Shown here: positions 4,307 to 17,470 of the stretch, one piece after another
How positions within the stretch are numbered: the stretch's first letter is position 1
Layout of the letters: every line of letters begins with the position of its first letter
Assembly: GCA_043822705.1 (NCBI GenBank)
Contig: JBDRBK010000059.1
Span: 1 to 17,470 of the forward strand
Source of the DNA: Fidelibacterota bacterium
GTDB lineage: Bacteria; Fidelibacterota; Marinisomatia; Marinisomatales; TCS56
Reading direction: 5' to 3'
DNA: 17,470 nt
Notes under the pieces: model-generated
Database searches by the model: none
The model's input: the letters and a program-made list of their open reading frames with translations, nothing else
What the model was told of the DNA's origin: nothing
Position numbers and translations under genes: made by a program

Positions 4307-5643
4307 AAGTCCCTCCCCGCCAGCAGTTCGAGTCTGGCTACTGCTTTTTGGCCGGCCACTAGCGATCGTTCATGCTCCAACAGAAATTGCAGATAGCGCC
4401 GCTGGGCGTCCACCAGGTTGAGAAAGTCAAGTTTATCGGCCACGTAGGCTTTTTCAGTGGCCCGCAGTGATTCCAGACTCTTGGGAATAAGTCCGTCTCC
4501 GTACAGAGCGATCTTGCGGCGGGCGTCCTCCAACTCGAACCAGGCCTGCTCCGCCTCGGCCCGTAACCGGTTTTCCAGGTCGATGTATCGTTCCTCGGTG
4601 GCGCGGTACTGGTAGCGGGCGGCGCTGACGGCGCTACGGTTTTTTTTGAACCACAGCGGCAGGCTGGCCGAAACCATTACCACCAAAGGGTCCTTGCCAC
4701 TGCCGGATGTACCGCTCATCAATTTTTCTCCGGTGACAATGTAATCCAGTCCCACGCCCAGATCGGGATAATAATTCAGGCGTGCCTTTTTTATATTATC
4801 CGCACTCGCCTGCCTGCTCAATTCGGCGATTCTGAATTCCGGGTTGCTTTCGAGAATAATCGCCACAATTTCCTCTTGGGACAATAATCGGCCGATGGCG
4901 TCAAGTGAATCCGGAACAATGATTTCAGTCAGATTTTTGTCGTTCAGCGCCAGCCGGAATTTTTCGATCAGCGGTGATTGCTGCGCTTCCAGAGTCTTCA
5001 GATTGTCTTCCAGTTTCAGCAGTTCAATCTGCGTGTTGATCAGATCGGGGTGGCCGGCGCGGGCGGTGGCGTATTTGCTCGTAACCACTTTCTCCCAGTT
5101 ACGCACCAGGGCGATATTCTGTTGCGTCAGGGTGATCGAGCGCTGCAGGAAATAATAATCCAGATAAATTTCGGTGACCCGGTATTTGAGCTGATAGACG
5201 GCGGTGTTGACTTGTTCTGCTGCGATCTCCGCAGTCCGGGTCTGCAGTTGCCCGGCCAGACGCAGTTTTCCGAACCATGGCAGCATCTGGTTCAGACTGA
5301 TTTTAAGTTCCTGTGGACCGACGGCGGTCTCGATATTTTCCAGGAAATAACCCAGACTGGCAGTCGGATTTGGCAGTCCGCGGGCCACGGCAATCGAATT
5401 GACTTCCGCCTGCCAACGAGCCCAGGCGCTTTTTACAGCGGGATTATTGTGTGCTGCCGTCGTTAGATAATCGGCCAGGGTGGGATGTTCGGCCAGCGGC
5501 GCTGCTGGACTGTCGGTAAACCCGGTCTGCACCTGGTCCGCGCGCCACTGGTGTTCGCCGTCGGCACCGTTGACGGGATTGATCAGAACCGCCAGGACCG
5601 GCAACAGCAGCCATTTAAATATTTCAATCGGTGGATTGGTCAA
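4303..5643 (-). CDS. TolC/CusC-type outer-membrane efflux factor (446 aa from TTG 5643)
   Basis: OEP-type motifs AAHNNPAVKSA, LNQMLPWFGK, ARLNYYPDL, SLPLWFKKN, DFLNLVDAQR. The ORF track starts at 5748. TTG at 5643 is preferred: it has AAGGAG 7 nt upstream and is followed by a signal-like segment (KWLLLPVLAVLINPVNG). The stop overlaps the cusB ATG (ATGA). Confidence 0.9.
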   Translation of the reverse strand: MTNPPIEIFKWLLLPVLAVLINPVNGADGEHQWRADQVQTGFTDSPAAPLAEHPTLADYLTTAAHNNPAVKSAWARWQAEVNSIAVARGLPNPTASLGYFLENIETAVGPQELKISLNQMLPWFGKLRLAGQLQTRTAEIAAEQVNTAVYQLKYRVTEIYLDYYFLQRSITLTQQNIALVRNWEKVVTSKYATARAGHPDLINTQIELLKLEDNLKTLEAQQSPLIEKFRLALNDKNLTEIIVPDSLDAIGRLLSQEEIVAIILESNPEFRIAELSRQASADNIKKARLNYYPDLGVGLDYIVTGEKLMSGTSGSGKDPLVVMVSASLPLWFKKNRSAVSAARYQYRATEERYIDLENRLRAEAEQAWFELEDARRKIALYGDGLIPKSLESLRATEKAYVADKLDFLNLVDAQRRYLQFLLEHERSLVAGQKAVARLELLAGRDL

Positions 5644-5761
5644 ATCAGAACTCCTTGTTTTGATTAATAATACAGACAAACCCCGCACTGTCTTTCCCGG
5701 ACAACCGGACGTACAAGCGGGAAGCGGGCGCATGGCCCGTGCAATCAAGGAGTATCTAGAT
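5644..5761 (-). promoter_or_regulatory. Structured intercistronic RNA: anti-SD arm pairing with the RBS of the OMF gene
   Basis: mRNA 5' arm ATC-T-AGA-T-ACTCCTTG (5761-5746, includes the TAG stop of the upstream ORF) is complementary to 3' arm CAAGGAGTTCTGAT (5657-5644, SD plus spacer). This is 8 perfect bp, extending to 14 bp with two 1-nt bulges. Inner hairpins: CGGGC/GCCCG, CCCGC/GCGGG and CCGG-TTGT-CCGG. Confidence 0.7.
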
Positions 5762-6112
5762 CAGTAGTGGCAGCGGGTGGGCCGGAGGCGGCTCCGGGTC
5801 AACAGCCGGATTCATTTCCGGTCGATGGGAAAGCTGTTCGGATAAACGGATAACTGGAAACAGTGCAACGGCAATGATAGTCTGCTCTATCCTCTGTTCC
5901 ACCTTATTTAACGGCGCGACCACCAGTGTCAATAAAACCGGTGTATTGCAGGCCGCCAGGCTCGATTCGCATGTCACTACATTTGCCGCCATGCAGCAGC
6001 TTAATTCAGTGCGGCAGCAGGGCATGTTGCAATTGTCGAATTGCACCAGCGACAGCACCGGCGAACTCAGCAACAGCAACGTGGTAATGATGGATGTTAT
6101 CCTGTTCAGCAT
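5756..6112 (-). CDS. Small exported Cys-rich protein with C-terminal polyproline; CutF/CruR(DUF2946)-like regulatory upstream ORF of the cus operon
   Basis: 118 aa with an N-terminal signal-like segment. Seven Cys in residues 28-55 (CNMPCC, SCCM). C-terminus DPEPPPAHPLPLLI. First gene after a terminator and directly upstream of a Cu efflux operon. The CDS is well supported; the function is inferred. Confidence 0.7.
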   Translation of the reverse strand: MLNRITSIITTLLLLSSPVLSLVQFDNCNMPCCRTELSCCMAANVVTCESSLAACNTPVLLTLVVAPLNKVEQRIEQTIIAVALFPVIRLSEQLSHRPEMNPAVDPEPPPAHPLPLLI

Positions 6113-6178: not shown

Positions 6179-6217
6179 AAAAAGAAATCCCCCGACCCTG
6201 CGCAGACCGGGGGATTC
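6179..6217 (-). terminator. Rho-independent terminator downstream of the OmcE-like gene
   Basis: Minus strand GAATCCCCCGGTCTGCGCAGGGTCGGGGGATTTCTTTTT: 9-bp perfect stem AATCCCCCG/CGGGGGATT followed by a U-rich tract, 20 nt after the stop at 6238. Confidence 0.88.
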
Positions 6218-6237: not shown

Positions 6238-6846
6238 CTATTTATTGTGGCAAGTCAGGCAGAGAGCACTGGCATCGTTGGCCATAACCAGAAACGAACC
6301 GCTGCCGTTGTCATGTACATCGTGGCAGGAAGAACACTCCAATTTATGATCGGCCAGCAGGTCGGCGTCGATAGTGCTGCCGAGTCCGGAGTTAACCGTG
6401 GTCGGAGCATACAGCCCGCCATCACTGGTGGCCAGAGCATCATCGTAGGTAAATGAGATCGGGTGATCATCACTGATGCTGGTGCCGATTTCATTGGCAC
6501 TGCTGATGTCCGTAGTACCGGTCGTGACACTGCCGAAATTATCAACCGCCACCGTTCCATCGTGACAGCTAAGGCAGAGTTTCGAAGAGCCGCTGGGTTG
6601 CCCCATGCTGGCATCAACAGAGAATGAGCTGTACAGTGTGTAGGTGGAAGATGTAACCTGGTGATTCCACAGCGGAGCGCCGGTGACATTTGTATTGGCG
6701 TTATGTGGAGTATGGCAGACGATACAGATTTCACCGGACGAATTCCAGCTGCTGGCACTGAAGTCGTGGGCCGAGCCGGCTATTTGCCCAAACACCATTG
6801 TACTTGCTATTATCAGAACAGTTAAAACACCTAATAGTCGCGACAT
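6238..6846 (-). CDS. omcE: OmcE-like secreted tetraheme cytochrome c (candidate extracellular cytochrome nanowire subunit)
   Basis: 202 aa with a Sec signal and four CxxCH (CIVCH, CLSCH, CSSCH, CLTCH). Motif order AHDFS / ICIVCHTPHNA / PLWN / YTLYSS / LCLSCHDG / GTSISDDHPISF / LECSSCHDVHDN / FL..LCLTCHNK-stop. This is collinear with G. sulfurreducens OmcE as I recall it (KHDLS / ICVFCHTPHNA / PLWNR / FTLYSS / CMSCHDG / GTDLSNDHPVNF / LECGSCHKVHDN / LCLGCHKK). RBS-like AAAGGG 7 nt upstream. Confidence 0.9.
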   Translation of the reverse strand: MSRLLGVLTVLIIASTMVFGQIAGSAHDFSASSWNSSGEICIVCHTPHNANTNVTGAPLWNHQVTSSTYTLYSSFSVDASMGQPSGSSKLCLSCHDGTVAVDNFGSVTTGTTDISSANEIGTSISDDHPISFTYDDALATSDGGLYAPTTVNSGLGSTIDADLLADHKLECSSCHDVHDNGSGSFLVMANDASALCLTCHNK

Positions 6847-6891
6847 GTCGATACCCTTTAATTATCGTATTGAATATATCCAGTACCATAG

Positions 6892-6907
6892 TACAAGAAC
6901 TATACCA
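6892..6907 (-). promoter_or_regulatory. Candidate sigma54 (-24/-12) promoter for the OmcE-like gene
   Basis: Minus strand TGGTATAGTTCTTGTA versus consensus TGGCAC-N5-TTGCW. GG-N10 spacing is correct, but -12 is GT instead of GC. Lies 45 nt upstream of ATG 6846 and just downstream of a sigma54 activator gene. Confidence 0.55.
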
Positions 6908-7012
6908 CTCAAGGTAAAGTCAGCTAATTAGTTACTGATTTTCACGATTGTGGCCATGAGCCGACGGAGTCGGGACAGTAGTCTCCTGAAATTATCGGCT
7001 AAAACAGCGCTT

Positions 7013-7030
7013 ATTGATCATTTAATCAAT
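7013..7030. promoter_or_regulatory. Dyad ATTGAT-N6-ATCAAT, candidate activator/enhancer site
   Basis: Perfect 6-bp inverted repeat about 105-125 bp upstream of the candidate -24 element, a typical enhancer distance for sigma54 activators. Confidence 0.3.
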
Positions 7031-7039
7031 GCTGGTAGT

Positions 7040-7071
7040 GGATTATCCCCCAGAATACTGCGGAATAATCC
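7040..7071. repeat. Inverted repeat GGATTAT...ATAATCC just after the response-regulator stop (hairpin or operator)
   Basis: Minus strand GGATTATTCCGCAG-TATT-CTGGGGGATAATCC forms a ~13-bp stem with one mismatch. No U-tract follows, so it is not a canonical intrinsic terminator. Confidence 0.5.
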
Positions 7072-7075
7072 CCAA

Positions 7076-8449
7076 TCAAGTCAAATTGTATTTTTTCATT
7101 TTATATCTGATCTGGTCGCGGGTCAGGCCCAGCAGACGAGCGGCACGCGATTGATTATTGTTCTCGCGCTGGAGTGCCCAGGCTACAATTTCATTTTCAA
7201 TTTCCGACCAGGTTTTACCCTTGAAATATTCATCCAGGATCGCGTGATCAACCACCGGGGCTCCGTTGCGGAAATGATTTTGGATGTGTTGCGGCAGATG
7301 CCAGACCGAAATCCGCTCCGGTTTTTCCAGCAGGAAAATCCGTTCCAGAGTATTTTTCAATTCCCGGATATTCCCCGGCCAGTCATACCGGTTCAGCATA
7401 TCTTGGGCGGCCTTGTCGATTCCGGTCACGTGCAGATTCAATTCCGAATTGAAGCGCTCAATGAATTTGCTGGTCAAATCCGAAACATCCTCCAGGCGTT
7501 CGCGCAGCGGCGGAATCGTCAACGAAATCACATTCAGACGGAAATACAAATCTTCGCGAAACGTTCCCGATTCCATCTCCTGGCGCAAGTCGCGATTGGT
7601 CGATGCGATAATCCTGACATTGACCTTCAATTCACGTACGCCGCCGACCCGGTAAAAAGACTGGGTCTCGATAAAACGTAGCAATTTGGCCTGAAAACCG
7701 ATCGGGATTTCACCGATCTCGTCCAGGTAAACAGAACCGCCGTCGGCCAGCTCGATCTGACCATGCTTCCGCGCCTTGGCATCGGTAAAGGCGCCTTTTT
7801 CATAACCAAACAGTTCACTTTCCAGCAGGTGCTCCGACAGCGAGGCGCAATTGACGATCACGAATGGTTTGTTCTGACGCAGCCCGTGTTCATGAACCAG
7901 GCGTGCCAGCATATCTTTCCCGGTACCGGTCTCTCCCAGAAGCAGGATGGTACCGGTATCGGTCTGTCGTAATTTACGGATCGTGCTCATTACTTCGCGC
8001 ATCCGAGGGGAGTGACTGACATAACTTCCCAGGCGAATTTCCTGGTCGCCGCGATGCTCAAGGATGCTGATTTTCTGGCTTTTCTCCCGCTCCTTGAAGG
8101 CCATTTCGATCAAAACCGTAACTTCGTCGAAGTTGACCGGTTTGTTCAGGTAGCGAAATGCCCCCAGACGCATAGCCTCCACCGCCACCTTATCGGTACC
8201 ATAGGCGGTCATGAAAAAAAATACCGTTTCGTTCCGGATACCCTGCAATTCCCGCAGGATATCGATACCATTCATGTCCGGCAAACGAAAATCCACAAAT
8301 AATACGTCCGGCGGATCCTGCAGGGCATGCGTCACGCCCTGGCCGCCATATTCGGTGATTGTTATTTCAAACCCAATTTTCTTCAAGTGTTCCTGGAGCG
8401 ACCAGGACACCAATTTTTCATCCTCGATTATCAAGGCGCGCAGATTCAT
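7076..8449 (-). CDS. NtrC/AtoC-family sigma54-dependent response regulator (REC, AAA+, Fis-type HTH)
   Basis: 457 aa. REC (IIEDE, VDFRLPDMNG, MTAYG, LNKP), Walker A GETGTGKD, ESELFGYEKGAFTDA, Walker B YLDEIGE, FREDLYFRLNV, WPGNIRELKN, HTH NQSRAARLLGLTR. Confidence 0.97.
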   Translation of the reverse strand: MNLRALIIEDEKLVSWSLQEHLKKIGFEITITEYGGQGVTHALQDPPDVLFVDFRLPDMNGIDILRELQGIRNETVFFFMTAYGTDKVAVEAMRLGAFRYLNKPVNFDEVTVLIEMAFKEREKSQKISILEHRGDQEIRLGSYVSHSPRMREVMSTIRKLRQTDTGTILLLGETGTGKDMLARLVHEHGLRQNKPFVIVNCASLSEHLLESELFGYEKGAFTDAKARKHGQIELADGGSVYLDEIGEIPIGFQAKLLRFIETQSFYRVGGVRELKVNVRIIASTNRDLRQEMESGTFREDLYFRLNVISLTIPPLRERLEDVSDLTSKFIERFNSELNLHVTGIDKAAQDMLNRYDWPGNIRELKNTLERIFLLEKPERISVWHLPQHIQNHFRNGAPVVDHAILDEYFKGKTWSEIENEIVAWALQRENNNQSRAARLLGLTRDQIRYKMKKYNLT

Positions 8450-8450
8450 T

Positions 8451-9965
8451 TTAATTTTCCTTCAAAGGACGGATCGGCAGCTCCACCGTAAAACAGGTTG
8501 ACCATTTCCAGTCATTGCTGTCGACAAGAATTCGACCGCCGTGGCTTTCAACGATCGCGAGTGACAGTGACAAACCCAGGCCTGTTCCTTTATGTTTGGT
8601 AGTAAAAAATGGTTTGAATATCTGTTGGCGGTTTTCCGTCGGTATCCAGCTGCCAGTGTTCTTGAATGAGATACGCACGATATCTGCAACAGAGTCGAAT
8701 TCGGTACCGATATCGATCCGGGGATTACGTGTTCCGCTGGTCGCCTGATAAGCATTCAACAGCAAATTGACAAAGACCTGCTTGAGTTGCTCGGGATCGC
8801 CTTCGATGGTCAATCCGCCGGTCAGAAAATTCTCCCTCAACTCAATTCCATCGCTAGCAATCTGCTGCCGGTGCAGACTGATTATCTGGTCCAGCGTCTG
8901 TTCCAGGTCCAGAGCCCGAAAATGTGGTTTCGAAGGTTTGGCGAAATCCATCAAATCCTGGACCGTTTTCAGCACGCGGTCAGCCTGTGATACCATTTCG
9001 GCGACAATTACCTCCCATTGCTCATTAAAAATGTGATTCTGGCGGCCCTTGAAAATTTCCAGCGCATTCCTTATCCCGGAAACCGGGTTCTTGATCTCGT
9101 GCGCCACGCTGGCAGCCAGCTCACCGATGCTGGCCAGTTGTCCGGCGCGATTGATCTGCCGGTGATGCAATTCATCGATTTCTGACCGATTCTGTTCCAG
9201 CTTGGCGGTCATGTTATTGATGGCACCGGCTAATCGCGACAGTTCCCCGCGGGTTCGCAGATCGATTCGCGTCGACAGATCCCCCGCTTCGATCCGCGCG
9301 ATCCCGGCCTGAATCCGGTATAACGGTTTTTGAAATACCTGCTGATGCAGCAGGCTGATTACCAGCGTTATCAATATCAGGAACAGGGAGTAAACCGCAA
9401 AATCCAATTTCAGAAATGTGGCCTGCGTACCGGCGCCGACCGCATTGGTCAGATCGATCGCCAGGTATCCCAGATGCGTCTGCACGGCTTCGTGACAGGC
9501 ATGGCAGTCGGGCTCGTTGACGATGCTGGTAAGCATGCGGATATCGGCGGACGATTCGGCCGGTAATCTGAAAATCCTGTGATCACTAACCGGGATACCA
9601 GCATCTATCATCTCCCGGTTGTCGATCAATTGGCCCAATTCCGTATTATCGTTACTGAATTTGATAACCTGATTCCCATCCAGCACGCGGATATGCCGAA
9701 TCTCCTCGGACACTTTGATATCCGCCAGCAGCGACTGGCAATGCCGGGCCGAATGATTGCGCATATCATGACGAATCTGGGCATCGATCAGGGACTCCAA
9801 TGGTTTTAACAGCTCCAGCCGGTATTCACGAAACATGTCGCCACGGATTTTATAAACCGCCAGCATGGCACCACTGCCGGCAATAAATACCGAAAACAGA
9901 ACCATCACGATCAGTTTATCGCGCCAGCGCAATTTTCTCAGCAGGGGTATCCCGGCAATTTTCAT
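8451..9965 (-). CDS. Membrane sensor histidine kinase with periplasmic heme c-binding domain, HAMP, HisKA and HATPase
   Basis: 504 aa. Two TMs flank a periplasmic domain containing IVNEPDCHACH. HAMP (GDLSTRI..GELSRLAGAINNM), H-box VAHEIKNPV, N-box QVFVNLLLNA, FKPFFTTK, GTGLGLS. Confidence 0.95.
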   Translation of the reverse strand: MKIAGIPLLRKLRWRDKLIVMVLFSVFIAGSGAMLAVYKIRGDMFREYRLELLKPLESLIDAQIRHDMRNHSARHCQSLLADIKVSEEIRHIRVLDGNQVIKFSNDNTELGQLIDNREMIDAGIPVSDHRIFRLPAESSADIRMLTSIVNEPDCHACHEAVQTHLGYLAIDLTNAVGAGTQATFLKLDFAVYSLFLILITLVISLLHQQVFQKPLYRIQAGIARIEAGDLSTRIDLRTRGELSRLAGAINNMTAKLEQNRSEIDELHHRQINRAGQLASIGELAASVAHEIKNPVSGIRNALEIFKGRQNHIFNEQWEVIVAEMVSQADRVLKTVQDLMDFAKPSKPHFRALDLEQTLDQIISLHRQQIASDGIELRENFLTGGLTIEGDPEQLKQVFVNLLLNAYQATSGTRNPRIDIGTEFDSVADIVRISFKNTGSWIPTENRQQIFKPFFTTKHKGTGLGLSLSLAIVESHGGRILVDSNDWKWSTCFTVELPIRPLKEN

Positions 9966-9969
9966 CTAA

Positions 9970-10929
9970 TCAGGGCAGAAATGTCGGCGCCAGTTTACTG
10001 GCGGCCTGTTCGGAAGATTGACGGTATTCCCGGGCGGCTTCTTCAGTCCGGCCCAGTGCTTCCATAATGCGCCCCCGCCAGTAATGAATCCGGTACATTT
10101 CCGGCAGGGCGTGTATGCCGTACAAATATTTTTCCGCCACTTCGATTTCGCCCCGGTTGAAGGCAATCAGACCCAGCCCCAGTTGGCCGTACTGGGCGCC
10201 GTTTGGATCGTCCAACAGATGCTGAAAAATCTCCTCGGCGGCACTGAAATCTTCCAGTTTGAGATAAATGAAACCCTTTAAAACCTGGCCTTTCACCGAC
10301 AGTGAATCCAATCCATCGAGCTGCCCCAGGGCCAGTTGGTAGCGAAAACGATAATATAATTTCCGGGCCAGCGATTCCTTGCGCAGGCGTTGTTTTTCAG
10401 CGGCTGCAAAAGCTACTTCCACTTCCGGGGGAAATAATTCCGGGAAAAATACCGCCAGCTCGGAATTCAACCCGCTGGCCGTCGCCGGCGTATAGCCGGG
10501 TAGATAACTGGCCAGACGACGGTCCGGCCCCAGCACAAAGATTGTCGGCAGGACCCGGACCCCGAATGTGTCGTACCAATGGTGGTCCGGATCGCCGATC
10601 CGATACCAGGCAGCGGCACGGTCCGTCTTAGCCGACGATCCGGTGACCACCTGGATAATGAAAATCCGATCGCGCAACGGTTTGGTCAGGACCGCTTTCA
10701 GGTCGCCTTCGATCCGGTCTGATAAACGCTGGTCGGCGCGGGTAAACACCAGCAGCAGGACGGCGTCGGGGGCCGGTGACTTGACAGCGTCGCTCAACAG
10801 TGACTGCAACAGGGTATCCGGAAGCGCCTCCCCGATACTCCAGACCCGGCCGGCGGTCGCCTTATCCTGAGCCCCTGCCAGTCCGCCGACGATCAGCAAG
10901 ACCAGCAGCAGTCTGATTCTAGCGGACAT
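9970..10929 (-). CDS. Exported thioredoxin-like-fold (no CxxC) plus TPR protein (319 aa from ATG 10929)
   Basis: The ORF track starts at 11130, inside the upstream cytochrome gene. ATG 10929 overlaps that gene's stop and gives a clean signal peptide (MSARIRLLLVLLIVGGLAGA-QD). The N-half is redoxin-like (IGEALPD, LLLVF, FGVRVLPTIFVLGPD). The C-half has TPR-like repeats (KGFIYLKLEDFSAAEEIF, LGLIAFNRGEIEVA, YWRGRIMEALGRTEEA). Confidence 0.75.
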   Translation of the reverse strand: MSARIRLLLVLLIVGGLAGAQDKATAGRVWSIGEALPDTLLQSLLSDAVKSPAPDAVLLLVFTRADQRLSDRIEGDLKAVLTKPLRDRIFIIQVVTGSSAKTDRAAAWYRIGDPDHHWYDTFGVRVLPTIFVLGPDRRLASYLPGYTPATASGLNSELAVFFPELFPPEVEVAFAAAEKQRLRKESLARKLYYRFRYQLALGQLDGLDSLSVKGQVLKGFIYLKLEDFSAAEEIFQHLLDDPNGAQYGQLGLGLIAFNRGEIEVAEKYLYGIHALPEMYRIHYWRGRIMEALGRTEEAAREYRQSSEQAASKLAPTFLP

Positions 10930-12214
10930 ATTCTTCGTATTTGTGGCACCCCGGCAGACAGGTGCCACCGTTGCTGGTGGCTTTGAAATTAATCGGTAAT
11001 TCCCAACTGCCGAAAGGCACTGCTGTCCGAATATGGTAAGGCTGGTTCGAGGCGTGCGTCTCATGACAGGCACGGCAGGTCCGGCCCTTGGTCCGGTTGA
11101 CATGCAGGAAATGCATGTTGTTCTGGCCATCGCGGAAATTGGTCATGGTGGTCGTCAGCGGGTCCTGCAGGTTTTCCGGTGGGTGACATTCGATACACAA
11201 CTGGTACTTCTCGAAATCGAATTCGCTGTAGAATTCCTTGGGATAATAATGCCGCAACAGCCGAAAATTGCCGGAACCGTGCGGTTCGTGGCAGCCGCTG
11301 CAGTCGCGGTCCTTGATCGGCCCGTGCCAGTTCTTGCTGCCTTTCAGCAGTTCATCGATCCCGGGGACCGCTATCTTGCCCCGCTTGACCGCCTGATCGT
11401 GACAACTCAGGCAGAGATCGAACGAATTGGATCTCAGGTTCCAACTGAAATTCGAACCGTGTGAATTGTGGCAGTTGTAGCAGGATAACTGGTCCTCGAC
11501 GGCTTCATGATGCGAATCGGCGCCGGCGATGATTCCCTGAATGTTGCCATGACATTCGAAACAGAGTTCCGGTGTGGTGGAAAGCAATTGAAACCGGTAA
11601 GCGCTGCTGTGGGGATCGTGGCAGCCGGAACAGGATTCGGCCACCGGCGCGTGAATATTGGCCAGCGCATTGATTTCCTCCTTTTTCATTTCATGGCAAT
11701 CATAACAGGCGGCGTTGACGCCATCGAATTTGAGCAGCCCCTGCCCCAGTTTTCCATGACTGGAATGGCAGACATCGCAGGCTCCCACGGCCACCGGTCC
11801 ATGGATGTATTTGTCCCCGGTCCCACCGGTATCGTGGCACTGATTACAGACTTCCCCGGCGGTCGCTCCTTTCAACATATCGGCCTGATCGCCCTGATGC
11901 GGATCGTGGCAGGCGGTACATTCGCCTTCGGCCACCGGCGGATGCTGATCGGCCTCGTCCAGGGGAGCATCGTGGCAGCCGGTACACAATTCGGCCACGG
12001 TACCGGCCAGGACCATTTCACTGCCTTTGCCGCCCGGATGTTTCTTCTTATCCTGCACGTGACAGACTCCGCAATCGCGCTCCTCTACCGGCAGGTGGGT
12101 TACTTTTTTCTGGAATAATTCCGCGTGGCAGCCGCCGGTTACGCAGTCCTGGGACCACAAACCGGCACTGAAAAAAATCAGCAGGACCGCCAGTCGCTGG
12201 GCAGTTTTATGCAT
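10919..12214 (-). CDS. Periplasmic multiheme cytochrome c with doubled-CxxCH repeats; 13 CxxCH + CX4CH + CX3CH (15 hemes possible), 431 aa
   Basis: Start moved from 12274 to ATG 12214 (GGGGA upstream, signal MHKTAQRLAVLLIFFSAGLWS-QD). Repeating unit HxPVxxGxCxxCHxxH...LCxxCH. Motifs counted by hand. Confidence 0.93.
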   Translation of the reverse strand: MHKTAQRLAVLLIFFSAGLWSQDCVTGGCHAELFQKKVTHLPVEERDCGVCHVQDKKKHPGGKGSEMVLAGTVAELCTGCHDAPLDEADQHPPVAEGECTACHDPHQGDQADMLKGATAGEVCNQCHDTGGTGDKYIHGPVAVGACDVCHSSHGKLGQGLLKFDGVNAACYDCHEMKKEEINALANIHAPVAESCSGCHDPHSSAYRFQLLSTTPELCFECHGNIQGIIAGADSHHEAVEDQLSCYNCHNSHGSNFSWNLRSNSFDLCLSCHDQAVKRGKIAVPGIDELLKGSKNWHGPIKDRDCSGCHEPHGSGNFRLLRHYYPKEFYSEFDFEKYQLCIECHPPENLQDPLTTTMTNFRDGQNNMHFLHVNRTKGRTCRACHETHASNQPYHIRTAVPFGSWELPINFKATSNGGTCLPGCHKYEEYVR

Positions 12215-12240
12215 TGGTTTCCCCGTAATTGAATTAAGCA

Positions 12241-13872
12241 CTAATGGATTTCTCCGTGACAGGTCAGGTAACATCTTAATTTTCTTGGATTGGCATCATC
12301 GAATAGGATCTGGCCGCCGCTACCGGCAGTGACATAATCCGGATTGAAATTTATCAACCGGGAATTATTGTATGATCCGTGGGGATCATGACAAGTCGTG
12401 CAACTGGTCTGGTTAGTCTCAACATGCAGCCGGTGCCGGATAAAACTCTGGTTCCCCAAAATACTGTTCCGGTCATGGCACCGATAGCACAATTCATAAA
12501 TCGTGGCGCTCTCAATATTATAGTCGTCAAATACCATCTGGCCCGCCAGCAGCGGTGCATAGTTGGAACCGTGAGGGCCGGCCGGTCCGGTGCCGACTCC
12601 GGCCTCGTCATTGCCATGACAATCACTACAGTAGATCAGGGAGTTCTCGGTGTAGGGTGTGATAAGGCTGGGACAACTGGAATTTTTTCCGGCCCCGAAA
12701 ACCGGATGGTAGGACGGATTGGTTTCGGCATATTCCAGACGGATACTGTTCTGGGCATCGACGCGCGCTACGTAAGTCGGAATCGACGGGATTACCGTGG
12801 CGTGACATTTCAGGCACACCTCATATTCATAAGTGACCGTAGTAACGGTGTTGCCGTTTTTATCGATACCGCCGACACCGGTCAAACACCCGGGGACATC
12901 CGGCGGCGTGGCGACGGTGGAATTGGCCTGGTGCGGGGCGTGGCAATCGCTGCATTCGACATGCAGCGACATGGTGGCCGGATCCTCACCCGGCAGGTGA
13001 ATCGAATTATAATCCGCCACCGGATGAGTCGATGATTTCAGCAGGGTCGCCTGGACATTTTTCGCGGCCACATTTCCGTTGTGGCAGACCAGGCAATTAT
13101 CCTCTTCGGCACTGGATTTCAACAGCCAGTAGGTGCTGGAGGCGCCGTGGGAAGTATGACAGTTATTACAACCGTTGGCCGCAACCGTGGTCCAGTCTGT
13201 ATACGGCCAGGGGTCGGGCAATGAACTGTTCCAGGTGGCGCTGGAAGTGTTGTGAATAGCGGCGCTCCAGCCGGTCTGAACGTGACATTGCAGACAGATG
13301 CCGCCATTGAGCGGGTCGACTTTTAGGAAGTGACCGTAGGTGTTATCATGGGCGTCGTGGCAGGAAGTGCATTCCAGGTTGCTGGTGGTGCCGGACTGGC
13401 TGTCATGACAACCGGTACAGGTATATCCGTCGGGATGGGTATCGATATTCAGGGGATGGTCGTCACCCAGATCATCGGAAAGGTTGCTGCGGTAGGTGAC
13501 AGGAATCTTATCGAAACCGACCGGGAAGGCGATCGGGTCGACCCGGTTCAGGACCGATCCCAGGGCGACTGTCCCGTCGTGGCAACTGAGACAGAGCCGG
13601 GATGTCGTCAGCGGCTGCTGGGTGCTGGCATCCATGGAAGGGCTGCCATACAATGTATAAGTAGCTGTGTTGTCGGAACGGTTCCACAACGGCGCCGTGG
13701 CCGAGCTGTTATGGGTGGTGTGGCAGAAAATACAGATACCGGTCTCGCTGGTGGCCTTGATCGCACCGGTTCCCAGCACCGACAGATTGTGTTTGGATGT
13801 AGCGATACTGCCCTGCCCCCAGAGCAGGGTCGCCGTTCCCAGGGCCAGCAGTCCGGTAATAATTCTATTCAT
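12241..13872 (-). CDS. Secreted multiheme cytochrome c with N-terminal OmcE-like module; 12 CxxCH + C-terminal CX3CH (13 hemes possible)
   Basis: 543 aa, signal peptide ending LLWG-Q. Motifs CIFCH, CLSCH, CTGCH, CTSCH, CLQCH, CNNCH, CLVCH, CSDCH, CLKCH, CSDCH, CYRCH, CTTCH, CYLTCH. The first ~195 aa align by eye with the 202-aa tetraheme. Confidence 0.93.
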   Translation of the reverse strand: MNRIITGLLALGTATLLWGQGSIATSKHNLSVLGTGAIKATSETGICIFCHTTHNSSATAPLWNRSDNTATYTLYGSPSMDASTQQPLTTSRLCLSCHDGTVALGSVLNRVDPIAFPVGFDKIPVTYRSNLSDDLGDDHPLNIDTHPDGYTCTGCHDSQSGTTSNLECTSCHDAHDNTYGHFLKVDPLNGGICLQCHVQTGWSAAIHNTSSATWNSSLPDPWPYTDWTTVAANGCNNCHTSHGASSTYWLLKSSAEEDNCLVCHNGNVAAKNVQATLLKSSTHPVADYNSIHLPGEDPATMSLHVECSDCHAPHQANSTVATPPDVPGCLTGVGGIDKNGNTVTTVTYEYEVCLKCHATVIPSIPTYVARVDAQNSIRLEYAETNPSYHPVFGAGKNSSCPSLITPYTENSLIYCSDCHGNDEAGVGTGPAGPHGSNYAPLLAGQMVFDDYNIESATIYELCYRCHDRNSILGNQSFIRHRLHVETNQTSCTTCHDPHGSYNNSRLINFNPDYVTAGSGGQILFDDANPRKLRCYLTCHGEIH

Positions 13873-14833
13873 ATAATTTCCGGAAAACCTGGATTCGGTT
13901 GTTCATCGTATCGGACACATAAATCAGGTCGCCATCGATGGCGATATCGGTTGGCATGTAAAACTGTCCCTGACCGCTGCCGGTGGCGCCGAAATGCATC
14001 AGGAAACTTCCGTCCGCAGCAAAAATCTGCACATTATCAAAACTGTTGTCGACAACATACAAACGCCGGGCTCCATCCACGGCCACCCCCTTGGGACGAT
14101 TTAACTGTCCGCCGCTCACGCCGGCAGCGCCGATGGTTGCCAGCCAGGTGCCAGCGGGACTGAAATTCTGGACCCGGAAATTCATGGTGTCGGAAATATA
14201 GATCGACCCGTCCGCTCCGACGGTGACAAAAGTCGGGTAATTCAGTGAACCCGCCGCCTGACCGCGGCCGCTGATCAGCCGCTTAACGACGCCGTTCGCC
14301 TGCCGGCGCAACACCTGGTGCCCCGGCGTATCGACCAGATACAGACCGCTGCCGGAACCGGCAATCCCGGTAAGCCGCTGGGCGTCGGCCGACAGATCGA
14401 GCCGGCCCCGATAATCACCGCCATAATCGAACACGAATGGATTTTGCGCCAGCGACGAGGTAACGAAAATCCGGTCTTCACTCAGACAGACATCCAGCGG
14501 CGCGAACAGGTGACTGACACCCGCCGCCGGCTCCAGGAAGACGGTGGTGCCGGCTTGCAGATTAATCAGGAACACACCCCCGGCACCGGGATCAGCAACT
14601 GCCAGATAGCCGTCACGAGCATCCACTCCCATCGGGCGCGCGAACTCACTCCTGACCGGCGGCCGGATCAGGTTCGTCAGGCGCTGCCACCAGTTCCGGT
14701 CGGCGTTAATCGCCGGCGGCTCAGCCAACACACGCTCGAGGACGATCCGCGTCGTATCCGGTGGGCGCGGCCAGAGCACCTGCTGGGCAGCTACCAGGTT
14801 GACCAGGATACAGCCGATCAGCGCGATCATCAT
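13865..14833 (-). CDS. Exported NHL-repeat beta-propeller protein (about 322 aa)
   Basis: NHL repeats LNYPTFVTVGADGSIYISDTMNFRVQNF, LNRPKGVAVDGARRLYVVDNSFDNVQIF, FYMPTDIAIDGDLIYVSDTMNNRIQVF; N-terminal LWPRPPDTTRI. Start placed at the ATGA overlap with the barrel gene stop (14833). ATG 14860 is an alternative; 14962 from the ORF track is unlikely. Confidence 0.9.
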   Translation of the reverse strand: MMIALIGCILVNLVAAQQVLWPRPPDTTRIVLERVLAEPPAINADRNWWQRLTNLIRPPVRSEFARPMGVDARDGYLAVADPGAGGVFLINLQAGTTVFLEPAAGVSHLFAPLDVCLSEDRIFVTSSLAQNPFVFDYGGDYRGRLDLSADAQRLTGIAGSGSGLYLVDTPGHQVLRRQANGVVKRLISGRGQAAGSLNYPTFVTVGADGSIYISDTMNFRVQNFSPAGTWLATIGAAGVSGGQLNRPKGVAVDGARRLYVVDNSFDNVQIFAADGSFLMHFGATGSGQGQFYMPTDIAIDGDLIYVSDTMNNRIQVFRKLYE

Positions 14834-16785
14834 GGTCTGATATCGATGCTCAGCGACCATCGTGAATCCTGTTCCTTTTCCCGGAAAAATTTTCGTTCGG
14901 AATATTCGTACTGCAAATTCGCCGTCAGTTTGCGAACTTCGTAGCGAACCGTTCCCTGCCATTTCTGCTCGCGCAGATCGTTCATCGAACCACGGATTTC
15001 CCGCTGCCCCCAGGATACCTGGGCCTTCAGATTGCGCGATAACCGCCGAAAATATTCCATGACAATCCGGTTGAATTCCTGGGAATCATCCCGCAGTGGT
15101 AATTCCTGAACACCAACCTGAACTTGGGCCATCAGATACTGGCTCAGATATGAGCCCAGGATACCGTTCAGCGACAGCGTGGTGTTGGTATAGGGGGTGA
15201 TCCGCGAATCGGAAGACTCGCGCGTCAGCTCCAGCATGAGCGGATTATAATCGAGTTTGAGAAACCAGTTGTGGTCCCGCCGTTCATCGTATGAATAGAA
15301 CGAGACCGGACTCACCCCGGAATAATTGATCGAATTGCCCTTATAACCGGCAATCAGTCCCCAAAAAGATTGATACTGGTAGGTCACACCGTAACTCAGA
15401 TTGTCATAGGCGGTCGTTTCGGTCCGTTCGCCGGTGTAAACGAAACGCACCAGAATATCGACCGAGTCGGGAATGGCGCTGACCGGCGTACGCTGAATTT
15501 CGACCGTTGTCCCGACTTCATAGATATTATAGTCAAACTCATTCAGATAATTGATCAGCCCCGTAAGATCGCTGATTTCCACCGTTCCCGGGACTACGCC
15601 GCTGACCGGCAGCAGCAGCGACACCGATTCGCTGAAATTATGGGTGATCTCACCACGCCGGGTGACTCCCTGGTCGCTGTTGATTTCAGTCCAGTGCGGT
15701 TTGTACTCCAGATTGGCCGACAAGCGGCCGGCCGGCAGTTTTTTAGTATACTCCCAACCCAACCGGTATTCCAGATCGCGTTTCCGGTAGGCATCCTCCT
15801 GATAGAATTCCCAGTTGATACCTGCCGTGGAGGTCAGGCTTAGGTATAGCTGATGTTGAAGATTGGAATTCAGGCGGTGGGTCTGCGCCACCGTGCCGCT
15901 GTTCAGATAATACTGGTAATTGTACTGGGCGGTACTGCGCAGATTACGTCCCAGCTCCTGCTGAATACGGTTGTTCCAGGTGATGCTGGTAACGGTGTCG
16001 GTTCCGACGATATTATTTCCATACAGCGAGGCCTGATAGCTATTGCGCCGGTTGGCGCCCAGCGGCAGCGAAAAGCCCGATTGAACGGTGGTGTTTTCGA
16101 TCTGTATGTCGTACAGGCCGATTTCCCGGCGGTGTATTTGCGAATGGTTTGCACGGACATTGCCTCTGAAAGATTCCAGTCCGCCCCAGGCCCCGGACAG
16201 GGAGTAACGTTCTTCGTCGACCAGAACCTGCCGGCTGCCGAAATATTCTTCGCGCTGGTCGGTGGTGTAGCCAAAACTGAGTGGCAATCGGCGGTTGCGC
16301 CAGGTCGCGTTAAGATTGGCACGCCGTGTCAGGTCTTCCGAATCCTGGAAAAAATCATTGTTCAACTGACGGTATTTGCGCAAATAGCCCAGGCTCATAC
16401 TCAGCGGTTTTTTGCTGAACAGGACACTCTGAAAAGTAACATTGCGGAAAAATCCCCGGTCGGTTGATTGCGACTGCTGCGGACCGGCCCAGGAAAACAG
16501 GTTCTGATTCAGACCGGCATCCAATGCCAGGGAATACACCATTAGATTGGGATGATAAATACTGCCGTCGCCGCCGATTTCTAGTACTTCCCTGAGTGCC
16601 TGCCGACGGGAGCGGCCGTTATAGGAGGCATCCTCGATCCGGCGCAGCTTGGATTGGAAATCGCCCGTAAAATGCAGTTCGTAATCGGTAATCCGGTACT
16701 GGAATAATTTGACCATCGGGAGCTGCTGGGCCGTCAATAGACAGGGTGCAACCGCCGCTATAATATAAAACCGCCAACTGCTCAT
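14830..16785 (-). CDS. Putative large outer-membrane beta-barrel (porin of a porin-cytochrome conduit), 651 aa
   Basis: Start at the ATGA overlap 16785 gives signal MSSWRFYIIAAVAPCLLTA-QQ. The mature chain has no long hydrophobic helix, is Tyr/Asn/Gln/Ser/Arg-rich and shows many alternating amphipathic strands (LRSTAQYNYQYY, LTSTAGINWEFY, YRLGWEYTK, LTANLQYEYSER). Flanked by multiheme cytochrome genes. Confidence 0.8.
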   Translation of the reverse strand: MSSWRFYIIAAVAPCLLTAQQLPMVKLFQYRITDYELHFTGDFQSKLRRIEDASYNGRSRRQALREVLEIGGDGSIYHPNLMVYSLALDAGLNQNLFSWAGPQQSQSTDRGFFRNVTFQSVLFSKKPLSMSLGYLRKYRQLNNDFFQDSEDLTRRANLNATWRNRRLPLSFGYTTDQREEYFGSRQVLVDEERYSLSGAWGGLESFRGNVRANHSQIHRREIGLYDIQIENTTVQSGFSLPLGANRRNSYQASLYGNNIVGTDTVTSITWNNRIQQELGRNLRSTAQYNYQYYLNSGTVAQTHRLNSNLQHQLYLSLTSTAGINWEFYQEDAYRKRDLEYRLGWEYTKKLPAGRLSANLEYKPHWTEINSDQGVTRRGEITHNFSESVSLLLPVSGVVPGTVEISDLTGLINYLNEFDYNIYEVGTTVEIQRTPVSAIPDSVDILVRFVYTGERTETTAYDNLSYGVTYQYQSFWGLIAGYKGNSINYSGVSPVSFYSYDERRDHNWFLKLDYNPLMLELTRESSDSRITPYTNTTLSLNGILGSYLSQYLMAQVQVGVQELPLRDDSQEFNRIVMEYFRRLSRNLKAQVSWGQREIRGSMNDLREQKWQGTVRYEVRKLTANLQYEYSERKFFREKEQDSRWSLSIDIRP

Positions 16786-17384
16786 CCTGAACCGCCGCCC
16801 TCCCGCGGCAGAAATTGGCTGCGATCGGAGAAATGGGGCGAATGACACTCGATGCAGACCCGATTCTCGTTAAGAACATGGGCGGCTACCCGTTCACGAT
16901 CGATTTTTTCGTGGCAGAATGTACAGATTTTATCTCCGCTCCTGGTCAGCAGTTTTTTGCCGCGCGACCGATGGGGATCATGGCAGGCCAGACACTGCCC
17001 CACCGCTACCGGACCGTGGATATAGGCATAAGGTCGGGCAAACTGTTCGTGGCAGGTGCGACAGACAAAATCGGTCCTGGCCGCCAGCAGACTTTGTCCG
17101 GACTGATCCTGATGGCATTTATTGCAGTTGCGGCCCTTATACGGTTCATGCAGGAACCAGGTGACCTGGGTGCGGTTGGTCCGCGCGAAGCCGGGGGTTA
17201 CTCCGGTTAATGGCACGATTGGAACTGTCCGGGTGGTGTCAGCCTGCTGGGCAACAACCAGGGACGGCGGCAGCGGGACGCCGTCAAAAAAAAACGACAG
17301 AACCCGATAAGTAGTTTCGTCCCGGCAAGCGGATAAACACAAAACCACCGACAGGCCCAACAACGAACGACAGGTAAAAATCAT
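16782..17384 (-). CDS. Pentaheme cytochrome c lipoprotein
   Basis: 200 aa. Lipobox LSAC, then VLSFFFDGVP and a Pro/Thr-rich linker. Five CxxCH (CNKCH, CRTCH, CLACH, CTFCH, CIECH) in doubled-CxxCH arrangement. Confidence 0.92.
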   Translation of the reverse strand: MIFTCRSLLGLSVVLCLSACRDETTYRVLSFFFDGVPLPPSLVVAQQADTTRTVPIVPLTGVTPGFARTNRTQVTWFLHEPYKGRNCNKCHQDQSGQSLLAARTDFVCRTCHEQFARPYAYIHGPVAVGQCLACHDPHRSRGKKLLTRSGDKICTFCHEKIDRERVAAHVLNENRVCIECHSPHFSDRSQFLPREGGGSG

Positions 17385-17470
17385 TGTGCCGCCGGCTCCC
17401 CACGCCGGTGGATACGTCCGTAAATGCCGATTTTGTCGGGTCCGTACTGATTGGTCACGATTATGATATA
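17381..17470 (-). CDS. 3' end of an upstream gene, probably a second NHL-repeat/beta-propeller protein (partial)
   Basis: Open frame YIIIVTNQYGPDKIGIYGRIHRRGEPAAQ-stop whose TGA overlaps ATG 17384 (ATGA). IVTNQYG..KIGIYG resembles a final NHL blade (IYVxD...RIQVF pattern). Only 29 residues are visible. Confidence 0.55.
   Translation of the reverse strand, partial: YIIIVTNQYGPDKIGIYGRIHRRGEPAAQ

Follow-up and report, generated by a model that had tools for sequence, protein, structure and literature searches.

The stretch of DNA studied here, referred to below as the window, is the whole of contig C59 (17,470 bp) of a Fidelibacterota genome of 3.34 Mb in 218 contigs. It carries a cluster of multihaem cytochrome genes, very probably related to the omcE cluster, which ends with a gene for a tetrahaem homologue of the filament cytochrome OmcE. 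According to the open reading frame (ORF) list, the minus strand carries every gene from 17470 down to 6185. Based on the gene starts that give signal peptides, we number the genes g1 to g9 in the direction of transcription: a pentahaem lipoprotein cytochrome (g1), a predicted beta-barrel (g2), an NHL beta-propeller (g3), a 13-haem cytochrome (g4), a 15-haem cytochrome (g5), a thioredoxin-fold and TPR protein (g6), a haem-binding sensor kinase (g7), a sigma-54 activator (g8) and the tetrahaem protein (g9). Successive genes overlap by 4 nt, up to 31 nt, 8 nt and 11 nt or are separated by gaps of 26, 4 and 1 nt, and 229 nt lie between g8 and g9.

A preliminary description of this DNA, made from its letters, had recognised a co-oriented and mostly overlap-coupled run, and the order and strand of the genes confirm it. 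Motif counts likewise return the haem numbers given there (5, 13 and 15, and four in the tetrahaem) and show one haem motif in the kinase, and the Pfam domains agree with its NHL, TPR, kinase and sigma-54 activator calls. The starts that it implied for the barrel, NHL, 15-haem and TPR genes, on the other hand, lie upstream of the likely signal-peptide starts and had to be corrected.

The last gene of the run, g9 (6238..6846, minus strand), encodes a secreted protein of 202 aa with four CxxCH motifs, the candidate filament subunit. It matches 9yuq_N (E 1.5e-24) and 7tfs_A (E 1.2e-23) over the full length, both of which are solved OmcE filament subunits, and the earlier assignment of the protein to the OmcE type therefore holds. 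An alignment with five Desulfuromonadia-type OmcE homologues shows that g9 conserves the four CxxCH motifs and four further His in common with OmcE; every haem-ligand position of OmcE is kept, including H27 of the precursor, the His near the mature N-terminus.

The tetrahaems of the g9 branch, which we call FCB-type after the Fibrobacterota-Chlorobiota-Bacteroidota (FCB) group, are shorter and lack the long OmcE loops. They carry a ninth invariant His (His62 of g9, 6661-6663 of the window) within the motif PLWNH, which is replaced by Arg (PLWNR) in the Desulfuromonadia OmcE homologues and in the OmcE-like head of g4; this residue might pair with a haem propionate or serve as an additional ligand. 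Mean column identity reaches 72% among 25 g9-type tetrahaems from six or more phyla. In a FastTree phylogeny of 108 rows, the FCB-type tetrahaems (101 rows) are split from the Desulfuromonadia type with a support of 99. The g4 head sits on a long branch and groups with the Desulfuromonadia side, and the Marinimicrobia rows are scattered within a poorly resolved FCB-type clade.

Two further observations concern these tetrahaems. The sequences from locus L039, labelled Hyphomicrobiales, and locus L057, labelled Ignavibacteria, are nearly identical (branches of 0.05-0.07), which suggests mis-binning or a very recent transfer. In addition, four of the nine other Marinimicrobia genomes carry two tetrahaem copies close together at the cluster end (loci L093, L094, L096 and L098 of genomes G203, G206, G314 and G308, respectively), reminiscent of omcS/omcT-type paralogy, and the window has one copy.

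The 13-haem cytochrome g4 (12241..13872, minus strand; 543 aa) contains 12 CxxCH motifs and one CX4CH motif (CYLTCH). An OmcE-like module at about residues 20-200 is followed by a tail of about 340 aa. Residues 7-198 match 7tfs_A with an E-value of 2.6e-30, a stronger match than that of g9 itself. We rejected a reading of g4 as three fused OmcE modules: the tetrahaem profile matches the N-terminal module only (residues ~4-197), and beyond it the matches to this profile are at the level of motifs. The g4 family shows 58% column identity and 28 invariant His, with 12 CxxCH per protein in Marinimicrobia versus 11 in other phyla. The window protein has a CTGCH at residue 152 (13405-13419), inside the OmcE-like head, and we take this motif to be the extra CxxCH of Marinimicrobia. 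A head with this motif recalls the 5-haem OmcE-like proteins mentioned in the available part of PMC13712944.

Three genes are candidates for a conduit across the outer membrane. The lipoprotein g1 (16782..17384, minus strand; 200 aa) has five CxxCH motifs, the lipobox LSAC and a Paired_CXXCH_1 domain (Pfam, E 7e-25). The cytochrome g5 (10919..12214, minus strand; 431 aa) is MtrA/DmsE-like, and 13 CxxCH, one CX4CH and one CX3CH motif, counted in the 451-aa ORF, add up to its 15 haems. It matches 6r2q_A (E 7e-15), which we take to be the MtrA chain of the MtrCAB complex, and TIGR03508, the DmsE decahaem family, with an E-value of 2e-37 and 128.9 bits, under the cut-off of 192.2.

The protein g2 (14830..16785, minus strand; 651 aa with a signal peptide) is predicted from its sequence family to form a large beta-barrel in the outer membrane. 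Neither PF11854 nor any other porin model matches it, and no family of Pfam or NCBIfam does. A word-indexed search with the barrel retrieved just the barrel itself, and we used an exhaustive search instead, which found 549 representatives of about 650 aa at E<=1e-3. The family-averaged hydropathy presents a period-2 amphipathic signal (z 6.4 versus shuffles); Porin_4 matches three of 60 family members and MtrB_PioB none of the 60. Among the structural neighbours of its ESM Atlas model are unnamed families of 650 aa and, at TM scores of 0.52/0.47, MtrB/PioB, which we use as a lead only.

The second propeller, g3 (13865..14860, minus strand), carries NHL repeats (Pfam, E 3e-20) and is a probable lipoprotein (LIGC). 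With each of the two NHL lipoproteins found in omcE loci of Desulfuromonadia it shares 27-32% identity over ~330 aa. The secreted protein g6 (9970..10929, minus strand; 319 aa) combines TPR matches with a front half of thioredoxin fold. The thioredoxin-like part had been proposed before, and it is borne out by a Thioredoxin_2 match (E 0.006, under the cut-off) and by Redoxin+TPR fusions as Atlas neighbours. Since the 319-aa form has no cysteine, g6 cannot be a thiol reductase.

Regulation appears to be built into the run. The sensor histidine kinase g7 (8451..9965, minus strand) has HAMP, HisKA and HATPase_c domains and a periplasmic haem-c domain with the motif CHACH. All 29 cluster-linked g7 homologues have one CxxCH at about residue 142-182, and the four kinase ORFs without CxxCH are unrelated and low-scoring. 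A profile of 23 g7-type sensor domains matches 3b42 (E 3e-6) and 3b47 (E 6e-5) over nearly the whole length with the CxxCH aligned, which identifies the periplasmic domain as a PAS-like haem-c sensor of the 3B42/3B47 type and upholds the haem-binding kinase of the preliminary description. The sensor domain is thus shared with these Geobacter chemoreceptors, whereas g7 fuses it to a HAMP-histidine kinase that is paired with a sigma-54 activator. That partner, g8 (7076..8449, minus strand), is an NtrC-type sigma-54-dependent response regulator with Response_reg, Sigma54_activat (Pfam, E 1e-64) and HTH_8 domains, and the genome has rpoN on contig C32.

A sigma-54-type -24/-12 promoter candidate, TGGTATAGTTCTTGTAC, lies at 6891..6907 on the minus strand, 61 nt before the g9 start, and on contig C172 of the same genome TGGCACGTTATTTGGAA is found 39 nt before NHL', the first NHL gene of the cluster. 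Across loci, TGG-N8-TTG occurs within 150 nt upstream of the tetrahaem in 17 of the 23 loci with the activator directly upstream versus four of the 54 without it, mostly in the form TGGCAY-N5-TTGT; a 250-nt scan found the motif on the coding strand in 23/76 cases and on the opposite strand in 2/76. A strict TGG-N9-TGC search of the window gave 16 matches versus 12.6 expected, which is chance level. The domains, rpoN and the association of motif and activator fit an NtrC-type sigma-54 two-component system. This association, together with TGGTATAGTTCTTGTAC, TGGCACGTTATTTGGAA and rpoN, argues that the tetrahaem gene is most likely sigma-54 dependent and controlled by g7/g8; the whole operon probably is as well.

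On the 3' side of g9, an intrinsic terminator (6185..6217, minus strand) consists of a 14-pair stem followed by a T-run. In a terminator scan of the window, which found 10 hairpins versus 12.3 expected, this one alone stands out. The preliminary description had the tetrahaem gene separately promoted and terminated, and the promoter candidate and this hairpin agree with it. A sigma-70 promoter scan of the window gave 12 matches versus 10.1 +/- 3.3 expected, again chance level, and an Rfam scan of the window gave no match.

The other end of the cluster is cut by the contig edge. The final 86 nt (17470-17385), in frame 0, read YIIIVTNQYGPDKIGIYGRIHRRGEPAA, the last 28 codons of a first NHL beta-propeller lipoprotein (NHL', 17385..17470, minus strand), so the cluster extends past the contig end. 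YIIIVTNQYGPDKIGIYGRIHRRGEPAA matches the C-terminus of a 365-aa NHL lipoprotein with a lipobox on C172, where the complete NHL gene is followed by a near-copy of g1 (94% aa identity) and the first 213 residues of the barrel (93% aa). C172 (L085, 1-1321) and window 16147-17470 are 91.5% identical in DNA over 1,324 nt. Because C59 and C172 both break within the shared region and the genome has a contamination of 6%, we read C172 as a strain variant and not as a second copy: strain heterogeneity probably broke the assembly here, rather than a true duplication. Whichever reading of C172 holds, the operon starts with another propeller lipoprotein besides g3, as in its relatives.

The genome, that of an uncultured bacterium, belongs to the Marinimicrobia/Fidelibacterota (SAR406 type), as its RpoB and the closest relatives of the barrel indicate, in line with the FCB-group and non-Geobacter host that had been suggested. 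RpoB is 79-81% identical to its homologues, and six of the seven rows that name an organism are Candidatus Neomarinimicrobiota, Candidatus Marinimicrobia or Fidelibacterota; the remaining row, a partial sequence, bears the label Nitrosopelagicus. The closest named relatives of the barrel likewise come from Marinimicrobia.

The tetrahaem is very widely distributed. At least 7,323 relatives were found among 8,000 candidates scored, the best of them 59-70% identical and about 205 aa long, and a relative occurs in at least 579 stretches, with one genome taken per species. Public records labelled Ignavibacterium, Melioribacter or Caldithrix also contain close homologues, in metagenome-assembled genomes as far as they were seen. 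We examined the neighbourhood in other phyla for the best 80 of these at least 579 tetrahaem loci, which come from Calditrichota, Ignavibacteriota, Bacteroidota, Planctomycetota, Nitrospirota, Gemmatimonadota, Pseudomonadota, KSB1, Verrucomicrobiota and others. Where at least 6.5 kb are available downstream (57 loci), an NHL gene is the next ORF after the tetrahaem in 51, and there follows a g1-like gene (within 7 kb) in 45, a barrel of the g2 family in 45 and a g5-like gene in 40; NHL, g1-like, barrel and g5-like genes occur all together in 34. Where the DNA reaches far enough upstream (48 loci), a g4-like gene is found there in 33 and the activator in 16. Of the 41 loci in which both flanks are covered, 40 have g4 and 28 have the whole core. 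The common order in these phyla is NHL-g4-(kinase-activator)-g9-NHL-g1-barrel-g5.

Among the Marinimicrobia, 18 of 401 sampled genomes (12/114 genera, source genome G000 included) match at E<=1e-20. Ten loci from nine other Marinimicrobia genomes agree with the order NHL'-g1-g2-g3-g4-g5-g6-g7-g8-g9; two of the ten are complete from NHL' to g9, and the others end at contig or stretch limits. Across the 80 loci of other phyla g6 has no match, and it was found in the eight of the ten Marinimicrobia loci whose stretch covers the slot between the 15-haem gene and the kinase; in the loci compared, g6 is thus specific to the Marinimicrobia version of the cluster. Because the order is shared among Marinimicrobia and g6 is unmatched elsewhere, we regard the window's gene arrangement as a permutation specific to this phylum, made from a cluster that is very widespread. 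The locus is thus no new kind of system but the lineage version, in Marinimicrobia, of a known gene set, the one with which relatives of Geobacter build conductive OmcE cytochrome filaments.

The published counterpart is the omcE cluster. In its available part, PMC13712944 (Petersen et al. 2026) defines omcE clusters by adjacent barrel and propeller lipoproteins and names five phyla, none in the FCB group and the host phylum of the window not among them; related layouts are described in the uet preprint (10.1101/2022.05.06.490989) and the peat preprint (10.64898/2026.05.27.727921), as far as the available parts of these texts go. The novelty claimed in the preliminary description was therefore too high: the type of cluster is very widespread, and its kind has been published for five other phyla. 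Our literature search found no link of Marinimicrobia to OmcE, OmcS or nanowires and no description of this branch for OmcE in Ignavibacteria, Calditrichota or Bacteroidota, with the limit in both cases that Shen et al. 2025, Wang et al. 2022 and Baquero et al. 2023 could contain one. PMC9473688 mentions none of the cluster terms looked for in it.

For a direct comparison we scanned 401 Desulfobacterota genomes, 44 of which have a match, and compared six loci. Four of them (L101-L104) have purine genes and/or resB-ccsB, followed by genes for a 9/10-haem cytochrome, an 8-haem cytochrome, an NHL protein, the tetrahaem, a barrel of 746-807 aa and glycosyltransferases; a second NHL ORF between tetrahaem and barrel is present in L101 and L104, and none is listed in L102 and L103. 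They fit the layout purHDE-resB-ccsB-9haem-8haem-NHL-OmcE-NHL-barrel given in the available text of PMC13712944, and the tetrahaem of L104 matches 7tfs with an E-value of 8e-46. Against the omcE loci of Desulfuromonadia, g9 is 33-35% identical, both propellers are 24-32% identical over ~330 aa, and the 9/10-haem cytochrome matches g5 at 35-37% identity (E 1e-52 to 1e-62); the 8-haem protein of these loci gave repeat-level matches only. No protein of the g4 or g1 type was found in the six Desulfobacterota loci.

The window and the Desulfuromonadia omcE cluster (7TFS of G. sulfurreducens; 9YUQ, bundles of D. soudanensis) thus share an OmcE-type tetrahaem, two NHL lipoproteins, an MtrA-like cytochrome and a co-oriented large barrel. 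They differ in that the barrel of Desulfuromonadia belongs, as far as detectable, to another family (746-807 aa, versus ~650 aa in the window) and the MtrA-like protein has 9-10 haems there versus 15 in the window. The 13-haem g4, the pentahaem g1, the haem-sensor kinase and the sigma-54 activator are found in the window, unlike in the Desulfuromonadia cluster, whereas the window lacks the glycosylation genes and the purHDE/resB/ccsB frame of the Desulfuromonadia loci.

Other known systems resemble the window in part. By its description in the available part of 10.1101/2022.05.06.490989, the uet cluster of Candidatus Tenderia electrophaga (Tenderiales), proposed there for electron uptake, has a predicted extracellular tetrahaem, a large barrel, two NHL proteins beside a long extracellular undecahaem, and a TPR protein nearby; it also has a peptidyl-prolyl isomerase (PPIase), three trihaem c7 proteins and a cupredoxin, none of which was found in the window by Pfam and NCBIfam scans. 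The conduits MtrCAB, OmaB/OmbB/OmcB and ExtABCD share with the window the layout of lipoprotein cytochrome, barrel and MtrA/DmsE-like cytochrome. In contrast to them, the barrel of the window has no MtrB_PioB match, g5 is under the DmsE-family cut-off and there is no decahaem of the MtrC/OmcA type. The Ext/Omb-type conduit proposed in the preliminary description hence stands as regards the layout but not as regards membership of the barrel in the Mtr/Omb/Ext porins, to which it has no sequence match. OmcS is a hexahaem unrelated to the OmcE-type tetrahaem. The operon of its companion genes (osc) in G. sulfurreducens shares with the window the idea of a filament cytochrome with secretion/folding helpers and a barrel, the 'porin-like pathway', by the description in the available parts of PMC13194489 and PMC13712944.

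The rest of an electron pathway can be sought elsewhere in the genome, which has 15 stop-to-stop ORFs with three or more CxxCH. On contig C99, positions 29497-35770 (L108) hold a run of 11-, 4-, 17- and 11-haem cytochromes, and two multihaem cytochromes of this contig are fused to a cytochrome b domain of the formate-dehydrogenase-gamma type (CbcL-like; under curated cut-offs); by this domain architecture the fusions are candidate inner-membrane quinol oxidases for the pathway. Contig C110 has an NrfH-type (NrfH/ImcH-like) membrane cytochrome adjoining an HAO-like octahaem, also under curated cut-offs, and C85 has Ccm-type assembly genes. Cytochromes of the CbcL and NrfH/ImcH types oxidise quinol in Geobacter. 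The locus is hence not 'self-contained', as had been stated: the contig end cuts the cluster, and the candidates for quinol oxidation and Ccm lie on other contigs. The genome, which is 93% complete and encodes at least two predicted extracellular cytochromes, yielded no secretin (PF00263), and an export route through type II secretion or type IV pili is therefore without support, with the incompleteness of the genome as a caveat. This would leave the barrel as the only candidate in view for cytochrome export.

Taking these results together, we favour on balance, and with some reserve, a model in which an OmcE-type filament of g9 is fed by a barrel-sheathed conduit (g5, g2 and g1); in this model g4 is an adaptor or cap, the propellers and g6 help in assembly, and a haem redox sensor exerts control. 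Electrons from the menaquinol pool would reach the periplasm by way of inner-membrane cytochromes whose genes lie elsewhere in the genome, and g5 would carry them through the barrel g2, with g1 as its membrane-bound partner. Outside the cell, g9 would polymerise head-to-tail in the manner of OmcE, so that every subunit supplies a His ligand to one haem of the adjacent subunit, and g4, with its complete OmcE-like head, could link filament and conduit or form a cap. Both NHL lipoproteins and g6 may act as assembly or docking factors. By way of its own c-type haem, g7 would sense the periplasmic redox state or a small ligand and, through g8, turn on the sigma-54 promoter of g9 and probably also one ahead of the operon as a whole. 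The homologies, the conserved neighbourhood, the association of motif and activator and the host phylum are read from sequence; from these we infer polymerisation, secretion, occupancy of the barrel and direction of electron flow, where outward flow (respiration) is somewhat more likely than uptake.

Several observations weigh against this filament model. Filaments of the g9 branch have never been observed, and the branch is a separate clade (support 99) apart from the Desulfuromonadia OmcE. It has its ninth invariant His, and its 72% conservation contrasts with the variable loops of published OmcE (PMC13712944, available part); a carrier with many fixed partners would also fit such high conservation. 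The barrel has no MtrB/PioB match in Pfam, its hidden Markov model finds nothing at E<=1e-3 in the six Desulfobacterota loci, and hhalign of g2 against the barrel of the Desulfuromonadia omcE cluster gives a probability of 18.6% over 80 C-terminal columns. The promoter candidate of the window has TTGT instead of TTGC at -12. Lastly, OmcE of G. sulfurreducens is reported, in the available part of PMC13194489, to be non-essential for Fe(III) oxide reduction or current, and its importance in Geobacter is disputed (PMC13194489 and PMC11077965, both in their available parts).

Part of this evidence would suit a porin-cytochrome conduit only, made of g1, g5 and the barrel, in which g4 sits at the surface and g9 is an abundant, non-polymerising monomeric carrier, either periplasmic or surface-bound. 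The arrangement g1-barrel-g5 is indeed the layout of lipoprotein cytochrome, barrel and MtrA-like protein, and the conservation of the g9 branch over its whole length, its ninth His and its position apart from the proven filament formers are what a carrier might show. We nevertheless consider this unlikely, as g9 retains all OmcE haem-ligand positions, the His near the mature N-terminus included, and is accompanied by the same two propeller lipoproteins as proven omcE loci; its own strong promoter and terminator, for one small subunit, suit a structural polymer, although they would suit an abundant carrier too.

The same machinery could also run inward, as has been proposed for uet, with Fe(II) minerals, a surface resembling a cathode or a partner cell as the electron source. 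Multihaem wires are reversible in principle, the g4 homologues outside Marinimicrobia have 11 CxxCH, and uet, with its tetrahaem, large barrel, two NHL proteins and extracellular undecahaem, has been linked to uptake (by description, in the available part of 10.1101/2022.05.06.490989). However, the PPIase, trihaem c7 and cupredoxin of uet are missing from the window and the other cytochromes of the genome are of the CbcL and NrfH/ImcH types, so that we regard uptake as quite improbable. A periplasmic multihaem reductase that acts on a soluble substrate, in which the barrel is an ordinary porin and no electrons are transferred outside the cell, could be proposed on the grounds that the barrel family has no curated model. 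It is very unlikely: Pfam and NCBIfam reveal no haem enzyme family of catalytic type in the cluster, and the gene set is tightly conserved with an OmcE homologue across many phyla, with partners homologous to those of proven omcE loci.

To our knowledge, a few Desulfuromonadia and two archaea are the only organisms in which cytochrome nanowires have been observed, and SAR406 is among the most abundant phyla of the dark ocean. The cluster described here is a distinct and strongly conserved version, which has a different barrel and a cytochrome whose head is OmcE-like, and in many cases a sigma-54 switch that senses haem redox state or ligand. Hundreds of species carry it, among them Bacteroidota, Ignavibacteriota, Calditrichota and Marinimicrobia. 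If wires do form, extracellular electron transfer would be far commoner in sediments, aquifers and low-oxygen seawater than model organisms suggest. More tentatively, and as an idea that we hold to be doubtful as a whole, g4 may be the filament adaptor: its head would join the g9 polymer by a His-to-haem handshake and its ~340-aa tail would extend to the conduit bound to the barrel. This would make the FCB/Marinimicrobia cluster the first with a nameable nanowire base (or tip), switched by a haem redox sensor, and SAR406 lineages would be wired for extracellular electron transfer. If wires are formed, g4 would also offer a handle on nanowire anchoring or termination, a question raised in the available part of PMC13712944.

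Among the public sequencing runs no RNA run is listed, and three DNA runs have shares of 0.07-0.11. The remainder of the window, 1-6112 on the minus strand, holds a heavy-metal efflux operon of the CusCBA type, unrelated to the cytochrome cluster. By their Pfam domains, 5748-4303 encodes a TolC-like OEP protein and 4306-2450 a CusB-type fusion protein that has two HMBD metal-binding domains, while the third gene, for a CusA/AcrB-type pump (2475-1), is truncated by the contig end. The operon is preceded by an ORF for a secreted Cys-rich protein of 118 aa (6112-5756), which has no family in Pfam or NCBIfam.

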